From: a virus
Lineage: Duplodnaviria; Caudoviricetes
IMG/VR virus record: IMGVR_UViG_3300030118_004184
Span: 1-28,254 of that record
DNA: 28,254 nt
Direction: 5' to 3' (one strand)
In this document: piece after piece, positions 15,625 to 28,254 of the stretch
How positions within the stretch are numbered: position 1 is the stretch's first letter
Layout of the letters: each line of letters starts with the position of its first letter
The notes under the pieces: model-generated
What the model saw: only the letters and a program-made list of their open reading frames with translations
The model's database searches: none
What the model was told of the DNA's origin: nothing
Translations under genes and position numbers: made by a program

Positions 15625-15665
15625 AAAAGAGAAAGCCGGACAAAGCCGGCGAACCTTCTCTTTTC
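15625..15665. terminator. Possibly bidirectional hairpin terminator upstream of portal
   Basis: GCCGG-ACAAAG-CCGGC stem flanked by complementary AAAAGAGAA and TTCTCTTTT. Confidence 0.5.
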
Positions 15666-15761
15666 TTCATCTAACGACGTAAATCATATAGTGTTAGAAT
15701 TGCCGAACTTATTTCGGCCTGATTGATATAGTTTTATTTTATTTTATTTTCAAATTTTATT

Positions 15762-19227: not shown

Positions 19228-21000
19228 TTATTTTTGGGAAAGAATTTTTTTCAGTTCTTCAAACTCTTGATTATGTCTTTCATGGCTTGAAGACTGGATC
19301 GCATGTTCGGCGCGCGCTTTTATGATATCACAATATTTCGGCTCCCGTTCTATGCCGAGACAAAAGCGGTCTTCAAGCTCGGCCGCGATCATCGTCGTAC
19401 CACTTCCACAAAAAGGTTCTAACACAATACCATTTTTCGGAGTCACCAAACGAACAAGCCAGCGCATCAACTTTACCGGTTTCACGGTCGGATGAATGTT
19501 CGCAACTTCGGAAGCTGTTCTTCCAGCACCGGCTCGAGGATTGTTCAGACCAGCCGATCCTTCTTTGCGGTTTACGGCTTCATGTCCTGTTATTGTTTTC
19601 ATATCATCAAGACCTTTTTCTCTTTCTGATCTTGATGCTTTCGGACATTGGTATATATTAGCCGGCCATCTTCCGAGATAATGTACTTCTGACATTTCTC
19701 CGCTTCTGCCGACACCATCAAACTTTATTACAGGACTTAAATTTTTTGGATTTGGCACAGATGGAGGCGGATTATTCGGACCAACCCAACAAGGATCACC
19801 ATAAGCAAAGCGACAATCATCAATGTTGATCCCGCCGGTTTTATATTTCAACCAGTTCAGCGCGACCGTTTTTTCGCTCAATGGTTTTCGACAAAGTGTC
19901 GCAGGTTCAAAAGCTGGCTTTAATGCGGTTCCGATTCCTTCCGCTTGTTGTGCTTCTTCTGTGTCTGGTTTTGTTATCATTGGAATTTCTGGGGTTATGT
20001 TCCATGCTTTTCCAGTCAATTTTCCTCCCCCATGCCTCAAAGATTTTCCTACTATTTCTCTTTCGGCTCCAAAGTGTTTATCAATCGCTTTTGAAACATC
20101 GAGACTTTTTGGAAAGCCGGAGAAGTACAACCAGTTGATCGTATCTCTAACCTCAAAGCCCGCGTCTTCTAAATTACAAACCAAACGATGAATTGTTCTT
20201 GTTGCTCCAAATGATAAAATATAACCGCCGGACTTAAGCACACGGAAACATTCTTTTGCCCACTCTTCCGGCGGAAGATGGGAATCCCACTCCATACCCA
20301 TAAAACCTTTTTTTCCTGTGCATTGATATGGTGATCCTTCATATTTTGATCGATCTTGTTTTCCAACTGTTTTTTTCATAGGAGAAACCAAAGCATACGG
20401 AGGATCGGTGACAATACAATCAATCGAGTTATCAGGAAGCCGTCGCATGATTTCGAGATTATCAGCACAACATAGAAGATGATTTCCAAGATCGACAATA
20501 TCGCCGGCTTTCGTTGTTGGCTTGACACTTGTCGGAATGTTATCATGTTCTGATATTTCATTCTCGCCAGCTCTCTGAACATCTTCTTCTTCTGGACCAT
20601 CGATGATCGGTGTAAACTGATCAAAGAGTTCAATGAGTTCTTTTTGATTCCATCCGAGATCATAGGCTTCTTCTGTCTCGATGTCTTTCAAGATTTCGTA
20701 AAGCTCGCGGTCGTTCCAGTCTGCTAACTCGTTTAATTTATTGTCAGCAAGTGCGAGCTTTTCCGCTTCTTCTGCAGAGAGATCTAAAAAGTGGACCGGT
20801 ACTTTTTCAAGCTTCATATGTTGAGCGGCTTTGTATCTTGTATGACCGGCGATGATTGTCCCGTCTTTGTTGGCGACGATAGGAGCCGCAAAACCGAACT
20901 TCTTTATTGATGAAACGACTCGATCAACAACGTGATCATTTTCTCGAGGATTACCACTCCAAGGAGTAAGGTCTTCAAGCTGTACATATTTCAAACGCAT
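19228..21000 (-). CDS. ParB-like N-terminal domain fused to an N6A/N4C DNA methyltransferase (beta class)
   Basis: NPREN...FGF..PI...IIAGHTR...LADNK (ParB-like), then VTDPPY, HPTVKP and EPFCGSGTT; GAGG RBS before MRLKY. Confidence 0.9.
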   Translation of the reverse strand: MRLKYVQLEDLTPWSGNPRENDHVVDRVVSSIKKFGFAAPIVANKDGTIIAGHTRYKAAQHMKLEKVPVHFLDLSAEEAEKLALADNKLNELADWNDRELYEILKDIETEEAYDLGWNQKELIELFDQFTPIIDGPEEEDVQRAGENEISEHDNIPTSVKPTTKAGDIVDLGNHLLCCADNLEIMRRLPDNSIDCIVTDPPYALVSPMKKTVGKQDRSKYEGSPYQCTGKKGFMGMEWDSHLPPEEWAKECFRVLKSGGYILSFGATRTIHRLVCNLEDAGFEVRDTINWLYFSGFPKSLDVSKAIDKHFGAEREIVGKSLRHGGGKLTGKAWNITPEIPMITKPDTEEAQQAEGIGTALKPAFEPATLCRKPLSEKTVALNWLKYKTGGINIDDCRFAYGDPCWVGPNNPPPSVPNPKNLSPVIKFDGVGRSGEMSEVHYLGRWPANIYQCPKASRSEREKGLDDMKTITGHEAVNRKEGSAGLNNPRAGAGRTASEVANIHPTVKPVKLMRWLVRLVTPKNGIVLEPFCGSGTTMIAAELEDRFCLGIEREPKYCDIIKARAEHAIQSSSHERHNQEFEELKKILSQK

Positions 21001-21676
21001 GATTTGCCTCAAATAGCTTTGATTGTAATTTATGATTTTGTATTCTCTTTAATGCTCTTTGAAAATAGACTTCTGATATTTCACAACCAACAAAATCACA
21101 GCCTTTGATCATGCAAGCAATAGCCAACGATCCAGATCCAAAATGTGAATCGAACACTTTTAACTTTTTACCCTTCATTGATTTGATTTCTATATCAAGG
21201 ATCTGTTCATATAGATCGATCGGCTTTTGACATGGATGAATTGTTTCGCATCTTCTATTTACGTTTTGCCATTTGCTATTAATATGGATTACTTTCGTGA
21301 ATCGGCTATAACTTGCGATCTCACAAGTTGATAGATTAGAAGAAAGCGGAACGCCTTTTAACCAGATCAAAGCTCCAGACTTGCCAACAAATTGATTAAA
21401 ATAGTTTGCTCCGAAAATTACTTGATGCTTTGATATTCTTAAAAGTTCATCAAAATATTTTTTATCTGGTTTCGTTTCATTCCAGTCGACATGTTCTTTT
21501 CGAGTTGTCGGTGTTCTTTGTTGTGACTTTGCATTTTTATTTTTTGGACCATGATTTGGATATTTTTTTGTCCAGTCTCCTATACCGTAAGGAGGATCGA
21601 CGATTCCGATATCAAAATAATCGTCGGTGTAATTTTTCATTACATCAATACAATTTTTGTTCAGTAGTTTTATCAT
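20975..21676 (-). CDS. N6A/N4C DNA methyltransferase (beta class)
   Basis: IVDPPYG, HPCQKP and DSHFGSGS motifs. Confidence 0.9.
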   Translation of the reverse strand: MIKLLNKNCIDVMKNYTDDYFDIGIVDPPYGIGDWTKKYPNHGPKNKNAKSQQRTPTTRKEHVDWNETKPDKKYFDELLRISKHQVIFGANYFNQFVGKSGALIWLKGVPLSSNLSTCEIASYSRFTKVIHINSKWQNVNRRCETIHPCQKPIDLYEQILDIEIKSMKGKKLKVFDSHFGSGSLAIACMIKGCDFVGCEISEVYFQRALKRIQNHKLQSKLFEANHAFEICTA

Positions 21677-22043
21677 TGTCAGCCCGATAAAAGAATGTTG
21701 AAACTATATGTCCGTTGACATAGTATATCAGTTGGAAATATTTTCGGCACATCGTTACATCTTTTTGTTCAATCTCGTTCTTTCTTCTGAACATATCACC
21801 TTGATATAATCCATTCCGGACGGTCATCTTCTTGACGTCTTCAAAAGGTGAATCAAGATCGATCCTTCTTTTGGTCAACACAAAGAACCGCCGATCGCAA
21901 ATCGTAAGTATCAAACCATGATTATTTTCAGCTTGGCAAACAATAACATTATGAGCCGTAGAAGAACCGATCGACAAATACAGTCGATTGATCAAGGTTA
22001 GCTTTTTTCTCCAATAGCCGCAATGATGATCGATCTTATTCAT
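21645..22043 (-). CDS. Hypothetical protein
   Basis: Fills the operon; start MNKIDH overlaps the upstream stop. Confidence 0.55.
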   Translation of the reverse strand: MNKIDHHCGYWRKKLTLINRLYLSIGSSTAHNVIVCQAENNHGLILTICDRRFFVLTKRRIDLDSPFEDVKKMTVRNGLYQGDMFRRKNEIEQKDVTMCRKYFQLIYYVNGHIVSTFFYRADNDKTTEQKLY

Positions 22044-22233
22044 TGAGTGCCTTGATGATTGCTTTGATGATCCAATCATTGTGATCGGTCTTCTCTTTTT
22101 GAGCGCGCTCTTTTACCGCGAGAAGAATCTCACCGTTCAGCTGCAGGAGCGGAACAAATGAAGTCGTTACACCTGATTTCCTGATTCGTTTGTTTGCATA
22201 TTCATAATATGCCTTTTTAACTTCTTTATCCAT
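22036..22233 (-). CDS. Small DNA-binding protein, ribbon-helix-helix-like (putative)
   Basis: LLQLNGEILLAVKERAQKEKTDHNDWIIKAI fits a strand-helix-helix pattern. Confidence 0.5.
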   Translation of the reverse strand: MDKEVKKAYYEYANKRIRKSGVTTSFVPLLQLNGEILLAVKERAQKEKTDHNDWIIKAIIKALNE

Positions 22234-22246
22234 AAAACACCAAAGT

Positions 22247-22269
22247 AAAAAAACCGGCTCGAAAGCCGG
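22247..22269 (-). terminator. Rho-independent terminator
   Basis: Minus strand CCGGCT-TTCG-AGCCGG followed by a T run, downstream of the 22290 ORF. Confidence 0.7.
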
Positions 22270-22289
22270 CTGTAGTATAACATGATTTT

Positions 22290-22472
22290 TTATTGATATT
22301 TGTACGCGTTGAAATGACCAGTTGATACAGGTTTTCCACCAAAGCGAATTGACATTTCAAGAACCTGTATCTCAACAACTGAAAGATCAAAGACCTCCTG
22401 ATAATCGTATATATTGATATCGACTATCTTCTTTGTATTATTTTGGATGTCTTCTATCATGTACAGCATCAT
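22290..22472 (-). CDS. Hypothetical protein
   Basis: Co-oriented small ORF ending before a terminator; start uncertain. Confidence 0.5.
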   Translation of the reverse strand: MMLYMIEDIQNNTKKIVDINIYDYQEVFDLSVVEIQVLEMSIRFGGKPVSTGHFNAYKYQ

Positions 22473-22517
22473 AACCACAAATGAAAATAAAGATATCGGA
22501 TGTCAAACATATAAACC

Positions 22518-23234
22518 TCAAAGGATCGATCTATCTATTCGCAAAGTAACACTGGCTTTCATTTTGTCCAGATCGGGCCGGTCAAGTTCTGGCCCATATA
22601 GCAGATCGAGAACTTCATTGAGTACGCCGGCCGAATGACAGCCGAGGAAGTCGAGCATATGAGGGTTGTCAAAATCACCTCTTTCGACAAGCTTGTTCAG
22701 CTTCTTATAGTAGAGGTTCTTTTGTTCTTTGTTATAGTTGATTGCGATCTTCTCGATCCATTCCTTCATAGCTTTACCGGCGCGCGATCGATCTTTTCTT
22801 GTTGGCTCGATTCCTTCAGTCAACCACGCCCACATTCTCCAATACTTCTCGCGGACCTCTTCGGGGAAGTCCATCCGGTTTGCGGACCTTTCAATTATCT
22901 TGTCATACATCACCATATAGTACGGCATGTTCTTAATATCTCGATCCTTGGTTTGTAGCTTCGGCCGCTTTACTCTTCCAAGCCAGCTGGTCAAGAAGTC
23001 GATCCACTCGTTCACCTTCCAGCGTTTCGCCGATTGCTTTGATCGTAGCCATTCGTCGATCTTGTCAAGCTCGAAGTATATGTCAACCTTTGACGGGTTA
23101 GGAATGTTGGCGAAAACCGCGAGCGGCTTTCTGTCTTGTGAGGTGCTCCATCCGTGCGCGTTATATAGATCGACGAATCGAGCTTGAAGTGGACTCATGT
23201 TATATTCCTCTTCAAGAGTTAGAATCAAACTCAT
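22518..23234 (-). CDS. Replication-initiator-like protein (putative)
   Basis: ELDKIDEWLRSKQSAKRW...FLTSWLGR resembles the C-terminal helical domain of phage replication O-like proteins; strong AAGGA RBS; next to an AT-rich non-coding region. Confidence 0.5.
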   Translation of the reverse strand: MSLILTLEEEYNMSPLQARFVDLYNAHGWSTSQDRKPLAVFANIPNPSKVDIYFELDKIDEWLRSKQSAKRWKVNEWIDFLTSWLGRVKRPKLQTKDRDIKNMPYYMVMYDKIIERSANRMDFPEEVREKYWRMWAWLTEGIEPTRKDRSRAGKAMKEWIEKIAINYNKEQKNLYYKKLNKLVERGDFDNPHMLDFLGCHSAGVLNEVLDLLYGPELDRPDLDKMKASVTLRIDRSIL

Positions 23235-23235
23235 A

Positions 23236-23268
23236 TTGATTATCCTTTTTTTGAGTGTTGAGTGTTTG
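23236..23268 (-). promoter_or_regulatory. Shared leader motif (AACACTC)n-AAGGATAATCAA before the 23234 start
   Basis: CAAACACTCAACACTCAAAAAAAGGATAATCAATATG; same motif precedes starts at 27307, 27827 and 28051. Confidence 0.8.
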
Positions 23269-23509
23269 TTTTTCGGCGGAGGTTAGCAATTTTTTTTTGT
23301 TTTATTTTTTTGATAAAAATTTACTATTTTTGTGTTTCTATGAAAAAAATTAAAATAATCCAGACATTGGAACAATTACTAACACTACGTTGTTATGTAA
23401 CACGTTTTGACGTCAAAAATCAAATGTTTCTTGTCAAATCTTGGATCGCTCTTTCGTTGATAGGTCAACATATCCGGCTGATCTTAGAATCGATTTTTGA
23501 GCCGGTTTT

Positions 23510-23622
23510 ATTGGTTCAACCAATATCTGAGTTTCAAATCTCAGCGATCTTTGTGTACAGAGCTGCAGCTCTCGCGAAGAAAACGACTCAGATTGCAAGG
23601 TTAGATAATTGGTTCAACCACT
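23510..23622. repeat. ~110-bp imperfect palindrome, copy B
   Basis: Inverted homologue of 102-213; central perfect palindrome AGAGCTGCAGCTCT; TTGGTTCAACCA at both ends. Confidence 0.9.
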
Positions 23623-23636
23623 TAGAAGGAGGAAAG

Positions 23637-23674
23637 AAAAACCGCCGATCGTGGGGCTGACTCCAGATCGGCGG
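23637..23674 (-). terminator. Rho-independent terminator after the fibre gene
   Basis: 9-bp stem CCGCCGATC/GATCGGCGG followed by TTTTT on the minus strand. Confidence 0.75.
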
Positions 23675-23718
23675 CTGGTCGCGTAGGAGAAACAACAGAA
23701 GTTGTTCGCGACCGTTCC

Positions 23719-25557
23719 CTATGTCAGATAATCAACGATAATAGAATCACCATTTGGAGCGGCTCCGAAAGTTACAGCACAAACAGAAGAGGTTCCATCG
23801 TTGGCGACACTATATTCTGAACTGTCAGAAGGTGAAGCAACCTTTTTACAACGTAGACCGTTTCGGAAAACTTGGACACGATCAAAGAAGTTAGCATTGA
23901 CAGCACGACCAAGATCATATTTGGTGTTTGTGGTTCCACTGAATGATTCGGTGTATGCTCGGAAGCCTACCTTCTCGATCAAAACAGCACCCGAAGCGAG
24001 TTCCGATGATCCGACCGCATCGTCGGCGATTTCCGAACTTCCGACCGCGTTGTTTTGTATGGCTGCAGCATTTACACAGTTGGCCGCTAACATGCTGGTT
24101 TGAATACCGCCGGCCGCAACTGATAGACCATTTGAAGAATCGAGCGCAAGTGACGAGCCATCGAGATCAATGGAAAGTGTTAAGGTTCCGCCGAGACTCA
24201 AAGATCCTCCACCCTGCAAACCATCACCGCTCACCACGGAAACAGAAGAAGAAGCGAGCTTGTCATTTGTTACGGCCGAGTCTGGAATTTTTGCGGTTGT
24301 GCAACTGTCATCTTGTAGTTGAGCCGATCCGACTCCAGCATCTGAAATCTTCAAACCAGATACGGACTTGCTAAGACTGGAGCCTTCAAGTTGTAAGTTA
24401 ATAGTTTTTGAGCCGCCTAAAGAAATCGCGCCGGATGCAATCGAAACACCGTCACCGCCGGAAAGAGTAACGGCTGAATTCTGGAGTTTTGCGTTTTCGA
24501 TAGATCCCGCTAACATTGAGTTCTCAACAGCAGCGGCTTTTATCGTTACGATTCCACTATTTGAAATTGTTACATCACCGTCTATTGTTGTTGCGGTTGG
24601 TCTGTTTGAGGCATTTCCCATGATCACTTTGCCAGCTGCGACGTTTTCGACTTTTACCAAGCTGACATTCGCATCGACAATGTTTCCAGTTTGCACGGAA
24701 TTTGCTGCAAGTTTGGCCGCGGTGACTCCTCCACTTGCAACCGAGATCCCGCTTCCGCTCACCGTGATCGAAGAATCCGCGGCCACGGCTGCGACTGTTA
24801 CACTGGCTCCGAGTGCGGTTGATCCACCGCCGGACAAACCAGATCCCGCATTGACAGTGATGCTACTATTCGCAAGCTTTCCGTTTGAGATTGTCGATCC
24901 GGCGATCATAGCGTCTTGGATACCGGAAGCTTTGATCTCAAGTTGACCAGATCCATTTGTACCGATCGAAGAGTCATCAAACTTAACTGATAATGTATTT
25001 GATGAAAGATCGAGTGCGGTTCCGGCTTGGCGACCTCCGTTTGTGGATGAAAACAAGATCCAGCTTTGTGAAGCAAAGCTTGAAAGCTCGGCACTTTGTA
25101 AATACCCTTTATCGGCTGAAGTTCCTTCTCGGATGAAAACCGCGGCTGACTGAAGCTCGGCAAAGGTGTCCGCATCCGCGGCTCGGGCCAAAGCTCCACC
25201 GGCTGAACTCCAAACATAGATCCCATTTTCAGAACCAGTACTTTGAGCAGTCAAAAGAACTCTATCATCCGCGGCCATACTGATTCCGTCGATGGTCGCC
25301 GGAGCGTCTGAAATATCAACGTTTGAGGAAGATCGAACACGAACAGAATCATGCCAAGAAAGACCTTGTAGTTTGTTATCGACATAAGATTTGCTAACGA
25401 CTTGATTTGCTGCAGTTGGTGTAGCGTTGATCGTAGGGATTGCGGTAAAACCGAAAACTTGAGAAAGATCGAGCTTTGCGGGTTGGATGGAACCGGCGAG
25501 CTTGTCATTTGTGACTTCACCGTTTTTTATCTGATCGGCTATGATTTGAATTGCCAT
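23719..25557 (-). CDS. Fibre/spike-like virion protein with Ser/Gly/Ala repeats
   Basis: SKSYVD..QGLSWHDSV...DRVL..Q....ENGIYV fibre-type domain; repeated SSITV.AG.GL.GGG and VT..KLA units; TAGGAG RBS. Confidence 0.75.
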   Translation of the reverse strand: MAIQIIADQIKNGEVTNDKLAGSIQPAKLDLSQVFGFTAIPTINATPTAANQVVSKSYVDNKLQGLSWHDSVRVRSSSNVDISDAPATIDGISMAADDRVLLTAQSTGSENGIYVWSSAGGALARAADADTFAELQSAAVFIREGTSADKGYLQSAELSSFASQSWILFSSTNGGRQAGTALDLSSNTLSVKFDDSSIGTNGSGQLEIKASGIQDAMIAGSTISNGKLANSSITVNAGSGLSGGGSTALGASVTVAAVAADSSITVSGSGISVASGGVTAAKLAANSVQTGNIVDANVSLVKVENVAAGKVIMGNASNRPTATTIDGDVTISNSGIVTIKAAAVENSMLAGSIENAKLQNSAVTLSGGDGVSIASGAISLGGSKTINLQLEGSSLSKSVSGLKISDAGVGSAQLQDDSCTTAKIPDSAVTNDKLASSSVSVVSGDGLQGGGSLSLGGTLTLSIDLDGSSLALDSSNGLSVAAGGIQTSMLAANCVNAAAIQNNAVGSSEIADDAVGSSELASGAVLIEKVGFRAYTESFSGTTNTKYDLGRAVNANFFDRVQVFRNGLRCKKVASPSDSSEYSVANDGTSSVCAVTFGAAPNGDSIIVDYLT

Positions 25558-25568
25558 TTGTGGAACTC

Positions 25569-25826
25569 CTATAAAGGTTGATAGAATACAAGAAGAGTCG
25601 ATCCCGTGGAAGGGATGAATGATGTCTGAAAGGTTGATCGAGATAGTTCTGTAATTTCGACGCCATTTCTTTGCGCGAGTCCATTAAAGAACACAAGTAT
25701 ACTACCACGACGAAATGGTTTAAGCGTGAAAATCCTTGTAGAATTATCAATTTGATCACTGAGATCTATCATATCAAAAGATCGACCATTTGAACCACCG
25801 TTTCTTGTAAAGACATTCGATATCAT
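25569..25826 (-). CDS. Small beta-sandwich virion/fibre-associated protein
   Basis: VFFNGL.Q...F...P..GS.L.V.Y pattern resembles the C-terminal domain of the adjacent fibre (VFRNGL...FGAAPNGDSIIVDY). Confidence 0.55.
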   Translation of the reverse strand: MISNVFTRNGGSNGRSFDMIDLSDQIDNSTRIFTLKPFRRGSILVFFNGLAQRNGVEITELSRSTFQTSFIPSTGSTLLVFYQPL

Positions 25827-26221
25827 GATGTCACCTCATAAGTCAAAGTAACAGAATCAATATTGACTGTTCCGGTGTCGGTATTCAAAAAAAGATATAA
25901 CTTCTCGGCTTCACTTGATACATATCGCATATCTATCGAATAGACAGCTGCACCGCTCGAAGTGGTTGTAAGACCAAACGCGATCGATGAATCAGTATCC
26001 GGAATGATGATTTTGTCGCCGGCTGTATCTTCAGCGAGTCGGATTGTCATAGCGGTCGGTGATGAGGCCGCACTTGATACCCTGATCCAAAGCCCGCGAA
26101 GTATTCCATTGAACACCGATCGAAAGTTAAAGTCGAGATCGACGTCGATCTTCTTGTTGACATCCATCGTCGATGATACACCGGTCACCGAGCTTGTAAT
26201 TGTCTTTGATAATATTCTCAT
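25823..26221 (-). CDS. Hypothetical beta-rich structural protein
   Basis: Ser/Thr-rich; coupled by ATGA overlap to the fibre module. Confidence 0.55.
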   Translation of the reverse strand: MRILSKTITSSVTGVSSTMDVNKKIDVDLDFNFRSVFNGILRGLWIRVSSAASSPTAMTIRLAEDTAGDKIIIPDTDSSIAFGLTTTSSGAAVYSIDMRYVSSEAEKLYLFLNTDTGTVNIDSVTLTYEVTS

Positions 26222-26241
26222 AAGTCAGCCCAAAAAAAAAT

Positions 26242-26269
26242 AAAAAAAAAGCGGCCCACCGTGGACCGC
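26242..26269 (-). terminator. Rho-independent terminator
   Basis: GCGGTCCA-CGG-TGGGCCGC followed by T9. Confidence 0.85.
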
Positions 26270-26305
26270 TCAAAACACTCAACAAGGATAATCAAGATCC
26301 ATGTC
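26242..26305 (-). ncRNA. Putative ~60-nt antisense sRNA against the shared leader/RBS motif
   Basis: Lies between a sigma70-type promoter and a terminator; contains UUGAUUAUCCUUGUUGAGUGUUUUG, complementary to four leaders. Confidence 0.72.
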
Positions 26306-26310
26306 ATAGT

Positions 26311-26339
26311 GTTATACCTTTTTCGTGATCTATGGTCAA
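26311..26339 (-). promoter_or_regulatory. Sigma70-type promoter
   Basis: TTGACC-17 bp-TATAAC. Confidence 0.75.
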
Positions 26340-26403
26340 ATGAAAAATACGATTCCAAAGATCACAAGTGACATTACAAGAATATCAATGAAGTTCTCGT
26401 CGC

Positions 26404-26658
26404 TCATGGTTGCAACTCCTTGGAGAGCTTCCGAACCGCTAACCGGATTAATTTGGATCTGGTCACCTTTCCTTTTCGTGACTCGCTAAGGATTGAACCT
26501 ATCCGGTCAAGCTCGGCCATGATAGCCGGATCATCTTTGAAAGAATAGGTCTTGAAGTTCTTATCGTCGCCGGCCGGTATTAAATCGGTCCCGCAATATT
26601 TGCAGGTGAGTGAGGGGCGTAGAGTCTTGTTTTTATATCCGCATTTTGAACATTTCAT
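26404..26658 (-). CDS. Zn-ribbon plus ribbon-helix-helix transcriptional regulator (putative)
   Basis: CSKC...CKYC, then YSFKDD.AIMAELDR...TRSKLIRLAV (CopG/Arc-like); ATGA overlap. Confidence 0.65.
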   Translation of the reverse strand: MKCSKCGYKNKTLRPSLTCKYCGTDLIPAGDDKNFKTYSFKDDPAIMAELDRIGSILSESRKGKVTRSKLIRLAVRKLSKELQP

Positions 26659-26936
26659 TTTATTTTTTCCTCGGTTAGTGTTGTACACCATACACAAATG
26701 TTTTTGTGTAGTTTAATTTTATAATCTCGCGTGAATGATTGTATCTTCACACCGCGATAGTTTGTTCTGATCGTTGATGTTTCGAAAACTGGTTTTATAT
26801 CAGTCCAAGCTTGATAGAAGCTTGATCTTGTTACGTAGATATTGAGGACCGATCCGCTCATGCGAACATCTTCAACGATAAGATCGAATTTGCTGATATA
26901 ATATCCGACCATCTTAAATAGTTTCGCGTGATTCAT
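26655..26936 (-). CDS. Hypothetical protein
   Basis: Coupled at both ends (TAATG and ATGA overlaps). Confidence 0.6.
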   Translation of the reverse strand: MNHAKLFKMVGYYISKFDLIVEDVRMSGSVLNIYVTRSSFYQAWTDIKPVFETSTIRTNYRGVKIQSFTRDYKIKLHKNICVWCTTLTEEKIK

Positions 26937-27307
26937 TATGCTACCTTTTGAAAGAGTGGAAGTTGACCGATCGTCTGATAGGCTGTTTTTTGTTTCATGG
27001 CGATGGTTTGATCTGGAAGATCAAGAGCCAGCTGCAGCCGAACCTTTGCAACAATCGCCGGAGGTGCGAACTGCTCAAGGCTCTTCGTGTGTTTTTTGCT
27101 GTTGCAACTTCGGCAACAGGTGACGAGGTTATCATTTGAATGATCTTCAATATCTCGACCGCGCCAAGTTTTTCGACGGGAGGCATCAACATGGTCGAGA
27201 GTAAGGTCTTGAGAAGATCCGCAATATACACATGCATGATTATCTCTTGCATAGATTTGCCATCTTCTTTTTATTGCGATCCATTTGCTTCCGTTCTTAT
27301 GTGTCAT
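26936..27307 (-). CDS. HNH endonuclease (McrA-like, Zn-binding)
   Basis: RDNHACVYCG...LTLDHV...NLVTCCRSCNSKK. Confidence 0.9.
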   Translation of the reverse strand: MTHKNGSKWIAIKRRWQIYARDNHACVYCGSSQDLTLDHVDASRRKTWRGRDIEDHSNDNLVTCCRSCNSKKHTKSLEQFAPPAIVAKVRLQLALDLPDQTIAMKQKTAYQTIGQLPLFQKVA

Positions 27308-27320
27308 TTGATTATCCTTT

Positions 27321-27348
27321 GAGTGTTGAGTGTTGAGTGTTGAGTGTT
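27321..27348. repeat. Four tandem GAGTGTT heptamers in the HNH leader
   Basis: (GAGTGTT)x4 read directly from the sequence. Confidence 0.95.
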
Positions 27349-27404
27349 TCGATCTATCTTGATCTCATCAGTTCACCGATAACAGGTGAAGACACAAGCT
27401 TCAA
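27340..27404 (-). ncRNA. Type III hammerhead ribozyme
   Basis: GUGUC^ UUCACC-uguuauc-GGUGAA CUGAUGA GAUC-aagaua-GAUC GAAACAC: intact catalytic core with all three stems. Confidence 0.88.
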
Positions 27405-27827
27405 TCAGCTTGTCAATACTTCGACTGTAATCTCGTAGTGTTCATGAATCGACTTGTCGATGTCGACAAAGTAGAGAATACACTGATGCGCAATGTATTC
27501 CTCCAAAGCATCAGCAGCTTCGAACTCGTCTCTTTGCATGTGAATTGTATATCGCTGGATCAAAGTGTGGATAAAAAGAAGAGACTCGCGCCATTCGGCC
27601 ATGCTGATCTTTTCTCCAGTACTGAGAGAGATCGAAGGTGTATGAAAATATTCTGAACCATGATCGCGGATGGTTCGATCTATTCCGGCGAGTGCTTGAT
27701 ACAGGCTCGGCTGATTGTAATGAGGATTATATGTTTCCTGTTTACAATGTTGGCAAACAGCCGCCGACCATTCAAGATGGTTATAAGTATTTGTTTCATG
27801 ACATTCGAGGCATTTGATTTCGTACAT
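27405..27827 (-). CDS. Hypothetical early protein with N-terminal Zn ribbon
   Basis: CLEC...CQHC; AAGGA RBS within the shared leader. Confidence 0.7.
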   Translation of the reverse strand: MYEIKCLECHETNTYNHLEWSAAVCQHCKQETYNPHYNQPSLYQALAGIDRTIRDHGSEYFHTPSISLSTGEKISMAEWRESLLFIHTLIQRYTIHMQRDEFEAADALEEYIAHQCILYFVDIDKSIHEHYEITVEVLTS

Positions 27828-27892
27828 TTGATTTCCTTTAGGTGTTGAGTGTTTGAAGGGTGAGCAGTTGAAAAGCTTACTCAGGCATGATC

Positions 27893-28051
27893 TTAATTGA
27901 TAATTTTTTTTACTTGATAAATTGCAATGTGATATTGATAAATACCGAGTTTTTTGGATAGTTCTCTTCTAAGAACTTCAGCTTCCCATATAGAAGAACA
28001 AGGGTATGTATCACCGTTTGGTAGAGTCACAATGTATTCAATTTTTTCCAT
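27893..28051 (-). CDS. 52-aa early protein MEKIEYIVTLPNGD... (not in the ORF track)
   Basis: Open frame from ATG 28051 to TAA 27893; shared leader with AAGGA RBS; first gene after the promoter. Confidence 0.75.
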   Translation of the reverse strand: MEKIEYIVTLPNGDTYPCSSIWEAEVLRRELSKKLGIYQYHIAIYQVKKIIN

Positions 28052-28131
28052 TTGATTTTCCTTTGAGTATTGAGTGTTAAAGGGACCTCGGGCGTTGAGC
28101 CGTTCGCTTTGTAAGCGCCGGATCTGTATAC

Positions 28132-28160
28132 AATATAGCCGGAAAATATTATTTTATCAA
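28132..28160 (-). promoter_or_regulatory. Sigma70-type early promoter
   Basis: TTGATA-17 bp-TATATT with AT-rich sequence upstream. Confidence 0.6.
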
Positions 28161-28254
28161 CATAAATAATACTTTTGAGGTGAAATAGGGGTATTTTTCG
28201 CACTTTTGGAGTAATTTACGCTTTATTTCTCAGAAAAGTGATCGTTTTATCATC

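Follow-up and report, generated by a model that had tools for sequence, protein, structure and literature searches.

The host-encoded small RNAs RsaE, LhrC and the csRNAs act on several targets, using exposed C/U-rich segments to mask the ribosome-binding sites of heterogeneous mRNAs. In phages, the antisense RNAs sar of P22 and OOP of lambda are encoded in cis. The accessible text of a 2025 review places both in phage development with one named target each, sar blocking the initiation of ant translation, and names aQ, VpdS, PreS and 24B_1 beside them, none with a shared-leader regulon (PMC12197685). C4 of phages P1 and P7 is a three-stem RNA of about 77 nt that RNase P cuts out of a longer precursor and that forms part of lysogenic immunity. 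According to the accessible part of the source, pairing of its loops with phage mRNA partly blocks ribosome-binding sites, and small loop changes set phage specificity (PMC5320573). The CI RNA of P4, as described in the accessible part of another article, is a small, processed antisense RNA that silences the phage's own genes for replication by ending transcription prematurely through seqA and seqC, which flank its own locus (PMC4825925). Finally, mycobacteriophages of Cluster K carry 11 to 19 copies of start-associated sequences (SAS), which contain a Shine-Dalgarno (SD) sequence and lie in one orientation ahead of non-structural gene starts, with a lone inverted orphan, unlinked to any start, in four K1 phages (PMC3203893). 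Their role was stated to be unknown in 2011 (PMC3203893) and in 2024 (PMC11373665), and the accessible text of these two papers proposes no antisense RNA for them. Our search of the accessible literature found no description of the system reported below.

The locus lies in a virus record of 28,254 bases, analyzed over its whole length (hereafter the window), with an overlap of a few bases between its two ends. Terminase, portal, protease, capsid, neck, tail, tape-measure, amidase, two methylases, an HNH nuclease and a CopG-like RHH protein are all encoded on the minus strand, to which the features below belong unless stated otherwise. Close relatives include TARA-named metagenome records, which suggests a marine origin. 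No relative of the phage was found in GTDB genome contigs, and these gave no host link. Two imperfect palindromes of about 110 bp (100-216 and 23505-23625; 84% alike when inverted over 96 nt) bracket a 4.8-kb early-plus-fibre segment across the genome ends, and this segment has the orientation opposite to the structural genes in several relatives. The palindromes are possible origins, inversion ends or hairpin sites. In the relative G001, a near-perfect 72-bp palindrome (L037 7211-7282) separates divergent exonuclease-like and replication-position genes. At 15628-15730 of the window, a promoter-like site is followed about 100 nt on by a terminator-like hairpin just ahead of the portal gene, an arrangement conserved in G006 and G007.

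A sequence-only reading of this DNA had placed at 26242-26339 a small RNA antisense to the leaders of four genes. Its promoter, terminator, U9 tail and leader coordinates and sequences all stood up to re-checking. The predicted promoter comprises a -35 hexamer TTGACC (26334-26339) and, across a 17-nt spacer, a -10 hexamer TATAAC (26311-26316), both invariant in the four distinct variants known. The last base of the -10 is non-consensus, and the site, in which the conserved final T is absent, was missed by a consensus promoter scan. With its start placed from the -10 spacing, the predicted sRNA spans about 60-64 nt (26242-26305). Its fold has a predicted energy of -21.8 kcal/mol (z -3.5), reached by none of 200 shuffles, and that of the opposite strand is -15. 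The first 25 nt (26281-26305) form a hairpin whose 7-nt loop, CUUGAUU, is complementary to the AAUCAA immediately ahead of the target AUG and whose 3' arm holds an anti-SD AUCC. A 23-nt anti-leader (26273-26295), delimited by motif search and pairing and invariant in the four variants, combines the anti-SD with an anti-AACACUC part. It had been described as single-stranded, which does not hold: its 5' half is in the hairpin, and only the loop and a linker of about 9 nt are unpaired in the predicted RNA. The unit closes with an intrinsic terminator-like hairpin and U9 called by the terminator scan (26242-26271). The hairpin (26271-26249) has an 8-bp core, or 10 bp counting an A-U/G-U extension, lies 39 nt from the -10, and is followed by the U9 (26250-26242). 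At the level of sequence patterns, the unit has its own promoter and intrinsic terminator and no ORF, an anatomy that suggests a primary transcript. The Rfam search proposed earlier as a check of novelty gave no match at gathering score in window 21000-28254, nor in L137, L138, L045 and L139. Among eight window matches at E<=5, C4 was absent and the ctRNA_pT181 model scored 31.5 bits against a gathering score of 56.

Directly 3' of the unit lies a 132-aa gene (25823-26221), which comparison across relatives established as a synteny marker. The 132-aa/85-aa/fibre operon (26221-23719) begins about 20 nt past the U tail, without a clear SD or a promoter of its own, and its expression may need read-through of the sRNA terminator. 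On the other side, the window terminator scan called no terminator-like site between the RHH gene (end 26404) and the unit, so that in the window the sRNA hairpin may double as the terminator of the early operon. The promoter scan placed a promoter-like TTGATA-17-TATATT (28132-28160) at the head of the leader-bearing early cluster. A 23-codon hydrophobic ORF (26336-26407), absent from the earlier reading, ends in a stop codon that overlaps the sRNA -35, and a similar 25-codon ORF in the relative G012 bears that genome's own targeted leader. These layouts are reminiscent of a type I toxin-antitoxin arrangement.

The leader motif sits directly ahead of the ATGs at 23234, 27307, 27827 and 28051. 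A search for AAGGA[AT]AATCAA with at most one mismatch gave four matches in the window: three leaders and one plus-strand copy (26284-26295), which confirms the earlier claim of a sole inverted copy. The 27827 leader matches only at two mismatches. All eight minus-strand AACACTC matches fall within the four leaders; among the five on the plus strand, only that at 26274 is accompanied by the remainder of the motif. The chance expectation for each perfect 12-mer is about 0.002 per strand. An unsupervised search for alike start regions retrieved exactly these four leaders out of 74 SD-bearing windows.

We then ranked 220 minus-strand start windows by predicted pairing with the sRNA. The best predicted target is the leader of the HNH gene 27307 (27308-27349; HNH by Pfam and PHROG), with four AACACTC units and AAAGGATAATCAA. 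It is followed by the leaders of the 238-aa ORFan 23234 (23235-23267) and of the 140-aa gene 27827 (27828-27854). The expectation that all four leaders would come out on top was thus borne out for ranks 1, 2 and 3, but the leader of the 52-aa gene 28051 (28052-28078) was only fifth by co-folding, or sixth by accessibility-corrected energies from a simplified IntaRNA-like script, not IntaRNA itself. At rank 4 in both energy models stands the start region of the 132-aa ORF 22043 (22044-22075), a possible fifth, degenerate target. A ranking of 2820 windows by raw duplex energy of the full RNA was dropped, being dominated by the GC-rich terminator and uninformative. The mean predicted pairing energy of -18.9 kcal/mol was reached by none of 200 shuffles of the sRNA 5' part (shuffled mean -7.0). 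The predicted duplexes are bulged, comprise 21-26 bp, cover the SD and reach to, or into, the AUG, on leaders that are nearly unstructured (three of the four fold at only -3 to -4 kcal/mol). The unit is intergenic, on the same strand as its targets, whose start regions are 1-3 kb off. The "rep-like" label given earlier to 23234 was a positional inference that found no support: its product has no Pfam or PHROG family, a best Atlas value of 0.81, and a model (pLDDT 63) without a PDB match at E<=0.001 in Foldseek. The 23234 orthologues in the relatives G011 and G012 likewise bear their own genome's leader.

Set against the described systems, the unit is an analogue of C4 and CI, not a member of either. 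Like C4, it is predicted to pair through a loop over the ribosome-binding sites of phage mRNA. Unlike C4, it is predicted to be a primary transcript of two hairpins that has a terminator of its own and several dispersed targets under a common leader; it has neither the three-stem structure nor a C4 match in Rfam. In contrast to P4 CI, pairing is predicted at the translation starts of dispersed genes, and the targets do not flank the RNA's own locus. Unlike sar and OOP, the unit is encoded apart from at least four predicted targets, neither opposite to them nor perfectly complementary. The targets of RsaE, LhrC and the csRNAs differ from those predicted here, which bear a common repeated leader co-varying with the RNA. 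As in SAS, the window leader is repeated in one orientation ahead of non-structural starts, with a single inverted orphan. However, the phages are unrelated and the 13-bp SAS consensus is absent from the window leader.

The unit is kept in all six close records, which with the window amount to four distinct variants. Across these, no change occurs in the 32 columns that cover the 5' hairpin and anti-leader, next to flanks that are about 90% identical. Differences lie only in the terminator loop and its closing pair, the linker, the spacer and positions near the predicted start. Different genes follow the leaders in the close-relative genomes, indicating that the leader is attached to interchangeable cassettes.

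More divergent relatives have a unit at the same site. Upstream of the 132-aa-gene orthologue, G011 (terminase 69%), G012 (60%) and G001 (52%) carry units with TTGTGT-17-TATATT, TTGCGT-17-TATAAT and TTGCGG-17-TAATAT, respectively. In each, 5-6 nt separate the promoter from a 5' hairpin, behind which come an anti-leader and another hairpin; all but the G001 unit end in a U tail. In the terminase tree, the window lineage, G011 and G012 group at 97/95, and G001 forms a separate long branch. The four RNAs share only 29-35 identities of 60-68 nt in pairwise comparison (about 50%). Median energies with own leaders were -16.8, -8.1, -8.9 and -9.7 kcal/mol for the window, G011, G012 and G001, and all 12 cross pairs were at -4.8 or weaker. 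The leader sets of G011, G012 and G001 were fixed after their units had been seen, a circumstance to which rankings over all start windows are less sensitive. In these rankings, seven leader windows of G011 (two of which overlap) are within the top 9 of 345, four of the six leaders of G012 within the top 10 of 114, and the top three of 297 in G001 are its leaders. The co-variation of sRNA and leaders that the sequence-only reading had suggested looking for in related phages is therefore found in the window, G011, G012 and G001, and the predicted pairing is conserved with co-varying targets. A separate terminator lies just upstream of the unit in G011 and G012, and most G011 targets are on the strand opposite to the unit, so the unit is more than just the end of the early mRNA. 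At about 24430-24560 of G011, a second possible short promoter-terminator unit lies directly upstream of the anti-leader unit.

In a wider survey, an exact-word search of viral contigs returned only two close relatives and no inverted copy in distant ones; divergent units surfaced only in G.U-aware scans. The terminator scan covered 533 terminator-like units in 23 records, leaving out G009, G010, G020, G028, L117, L119, L122, L124 and close kin. The top unit was an anti-leader element in 14 of the 22 records with a usable leader set, usually by a wide margin (e.g., -13.8 vs -5.0 in G022) and by a narrow one in G004 and G005. It was not credible in G003, G008, G012, G015, G016, G021, G025 and L131. 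Six of these eight records gave units by promoter scan, second rank or blastn, and G021 (partial) and G025 gave none. Altogether, 12 of 13 near-complete divergent genomes carry a unit, detected by terminator, promoter, blastn or window scan. Relatives that keep the leaders and lack the inverted copy had been named in advance as evidence against the proposal, and one genome of the 13, G025, is of this kind: its stereotyped leaders are kept and the scans found no unit.

Two layouts occur among the units, with the anti-leader either between the 5' hairpin and the terminator or within a large terminator loop. A TTG-17-TA promoter equivalent to that of the window precedes 13 of 19 related units, curated for complementarity, versus 29 of 514 other terminators, a contrast that is overstated because some units came via the promoter scan and several are homologues. 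Three homologue sets show compensatory stem pairs (3/12, 5/18 and 5/14) with conserved anti-leader stretches. For 12 of 13 units, none of 60 shuffles matched the observed energy, and for G024 one did. No SD-spaced ATG was present on the opposite strand at 17 of the 19 units. Transition differences between leader and unit comprised six G.U and five A.C, where a G.U share of 0.19 was expected (p 0.009, assuming independent rows, three of which are homologues). In a first cross matrix, off-diagonal cells were inflated by the reverse strands of real leaders, and the rows G011 22608, G012 5489, G015 18810 and G027 7264 were excluded by hand for this reason. Only 6 of 19 units ranked their own leaders first of 21 sets (14th for G008), mostly because sister genomes have the leader class in common. 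A U opposite a leader G recurs in the anti-SD of the units of G001, G003, G004, G005, G012, G013, G014, G015, G016 and L129, and may avert a perfect anti-SD that binds unrelated mRNAs. Two different anti-leader units are apparently present in each of G015, G016, G017, G024, L129 and G004.

The unit is a real feature and, judged from comparative sequence data, likely a functional multi-target antisense RNA. Since leader and anti-leader change together in divergent relatives, one small RNA likely silences a whole gene class. Our favored explanation, which we consider probable, is a trans-acting antisense RNA of about 60 nt that would block translation of the leader-tagged non-structural genes as a class, probably for early shut-off. 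The stand-alone, one-to-many antisense RNA first proposed has strong computational support from same-site co-variation in four lineages, presence in 12 of 13 near-complete divergent relatives, promoter enrichment and compensatory stems. A sigma70-type promoter would make a stable two-hairpin RNA, whose exposed loop and linker would begin the pairing with the unstructured A/C-rich leaders. Opening of the 5' stem would follow and 21-26 bp would cover the ribosome-binding site, so that SD occlusion would abolish translation. The leader would serve as an address tag, enrolling any cassette gene that bears it in the regulon. The effect is likely repression, as the nearly unstructured leaders offer no inhibitory fold for pairing to undo. 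We take early shut-off or damping in the lytic cycle to be the main role, since neither an integrase nor a prophage relative turned up.

The nature of the regulated genes and the lifestyle of the phages bear on that choice. Among 95 of 156 leader-bearing proteins, searched against PHROG, most had no family; those assigned were replication initiators (4), exonucleases, Erf, anti-restriction proteins, HTH regulators and a methylase. The replication programme suggested earlier as the target thus finds backing in the leader-bearing initiators of relatives, but not in the window's 23234, which has no family or fold match. The absence of an integrase also held, with a tyrosine integrase in none of 16 genomes against 14 of 14 positive control genomes (serine recombinases were outside the search). 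The supposed lack of a CI-type regulator needs qualification, as the CopG-like RHH regulator means that the phage is not regulator-free. With the same RNA and pairing, the main role could instead be immunity, the chief competing explanation: the RNA would be made in a carrier or plasmid-like state and would silence the resident phage's early and replication genes as well as those of superinfecting kin, with leader/RNA pairs setting immunity groups as in P1 versus P7. The lineage-specific leader/RNA pairs, predicted not to cross-react, fit this idea, as do the replication initiators, Erf and anti-restriction proteins among the relatives' leader-bearing genes. In the accessible part of the C4 study, small loop changes likewise limit P1/P7 cross-reactivity (PMC5320573). 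We nevertheless consider immunity unlikely as the main role, given the integrase result, the lack of relatives in GTDB genomes, and window PHROG matches that include no partition or protelomerase family, save a ParB-like domain fused to a methylase. The lineage specificity of the pairs implies that close kin in the same cell would be silenced too, so kin-specific exclusion is possibly a role, and it could follow from either shut-off or immunity.

Two features of the window count against the trans-acting reading, the non-consensus -10 and the lack of a called upstream terminator, and there the RNA could instead be the 3' end of an early mRNA. The attenuated leader of lambda, pR'/6S, is a precedent for a related idea. 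Either the anti-leader, at the 3' end of an early polycistronic mRNA, pairs back onto the leaders of that mRNA, or the unit acts as an attenuated leader of the 132-aa/fibre operon. The position of the unit ahead of the same gene and in the same direction in four lineages would suit such a cis-acting element, as would the 132-aa gene without clear SD or separate promoter in the window and the missing terminator call after the RHH gene. Yet G011 targets are mostly on the opposite strand, a terminator isolates the unit in G011 and G012, the 23234 leader belongs to a different transcript, and units are placed elsewhere in other clades. We find a purely cis-acting element improbable, whereas a dual trans and cis role is possible.

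Slightly less probable still is a functionless relic, in which cassette shuffling stranded an orphan copy of a gene-start cassette at a terminator and recombination kept it similar. The leaders are indeed a repeat family fronting interchangeable genes, sense strands carry hairpin-plus-leader cassettes, and the plus strand reads ATG-TCA-TAG after the inverted copy. That ATG, however, lies 12 nt from the SD, against 7-8 nt in true leaders, and begins a frame of just two codons, matched blocks are mostly 10-13 nt, and the anti-leader is invariant next to flanks that are about 90% identical. Promoter enrichment, compensatory stems, loop display and the G.U bias all favor an RNA from the opposite strand. 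Most improbable is that the AACACTC repeats are DNA operators bound by a phage regulator such as the RHH protein, the inverted copy being an operator downstream of a promoter: the 7-bp repeats are in tandem and the CopG-like RHH gene adjoins, but the match takes in the SD and the bases before the AUG, G.U substitutions specific to one strand occur repeatedly, and copies lie in RNA hairpin loops in related phages.

A trans-acting anti-leader RNA also invites comparison with Cluster K. The examined stretch of phage Anaya (L164) contains 15 forward SAS copies and one inverted copy. A long hairpin predicted in a 386-bp gap holds the latter (L164 29871-29883) in its loop and belongs to a conserved multi-hairpin intergenic element that matches 150 phage records. 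Of seven aligned Cluster K phages, four retain this loop and Yuna, Keshu and Pixie have lost it, so that the parallel is no more than suggestive. Tentatively, and with more doubt than confidence, we propose that stereotyped leaders may be RNA address tags for a single master anti-leader RNA, a protein-free equivalent of repressor and operator acting at translation. It would enroll new cassettes, diversify into immunity groups that do not cross-react, and also explain the SAS of Cluster K.

What purpose the Cluster K SAS and their single inverted copy serve is posed as an open question in the accessible text of the 2011 and 2024 papers, and the pattern offers a testable answer. The four natural RNA/leader pairs, predicted not to cross-react, are ready for a swap experiment and are possible orthogonal translation switches. 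If the trans-acting reading is true, a family of uncultured tailed phages of about 28-31 kb would run its interchangeable early genes by one small RNA and a common leader, not by a protein repressor and operators.
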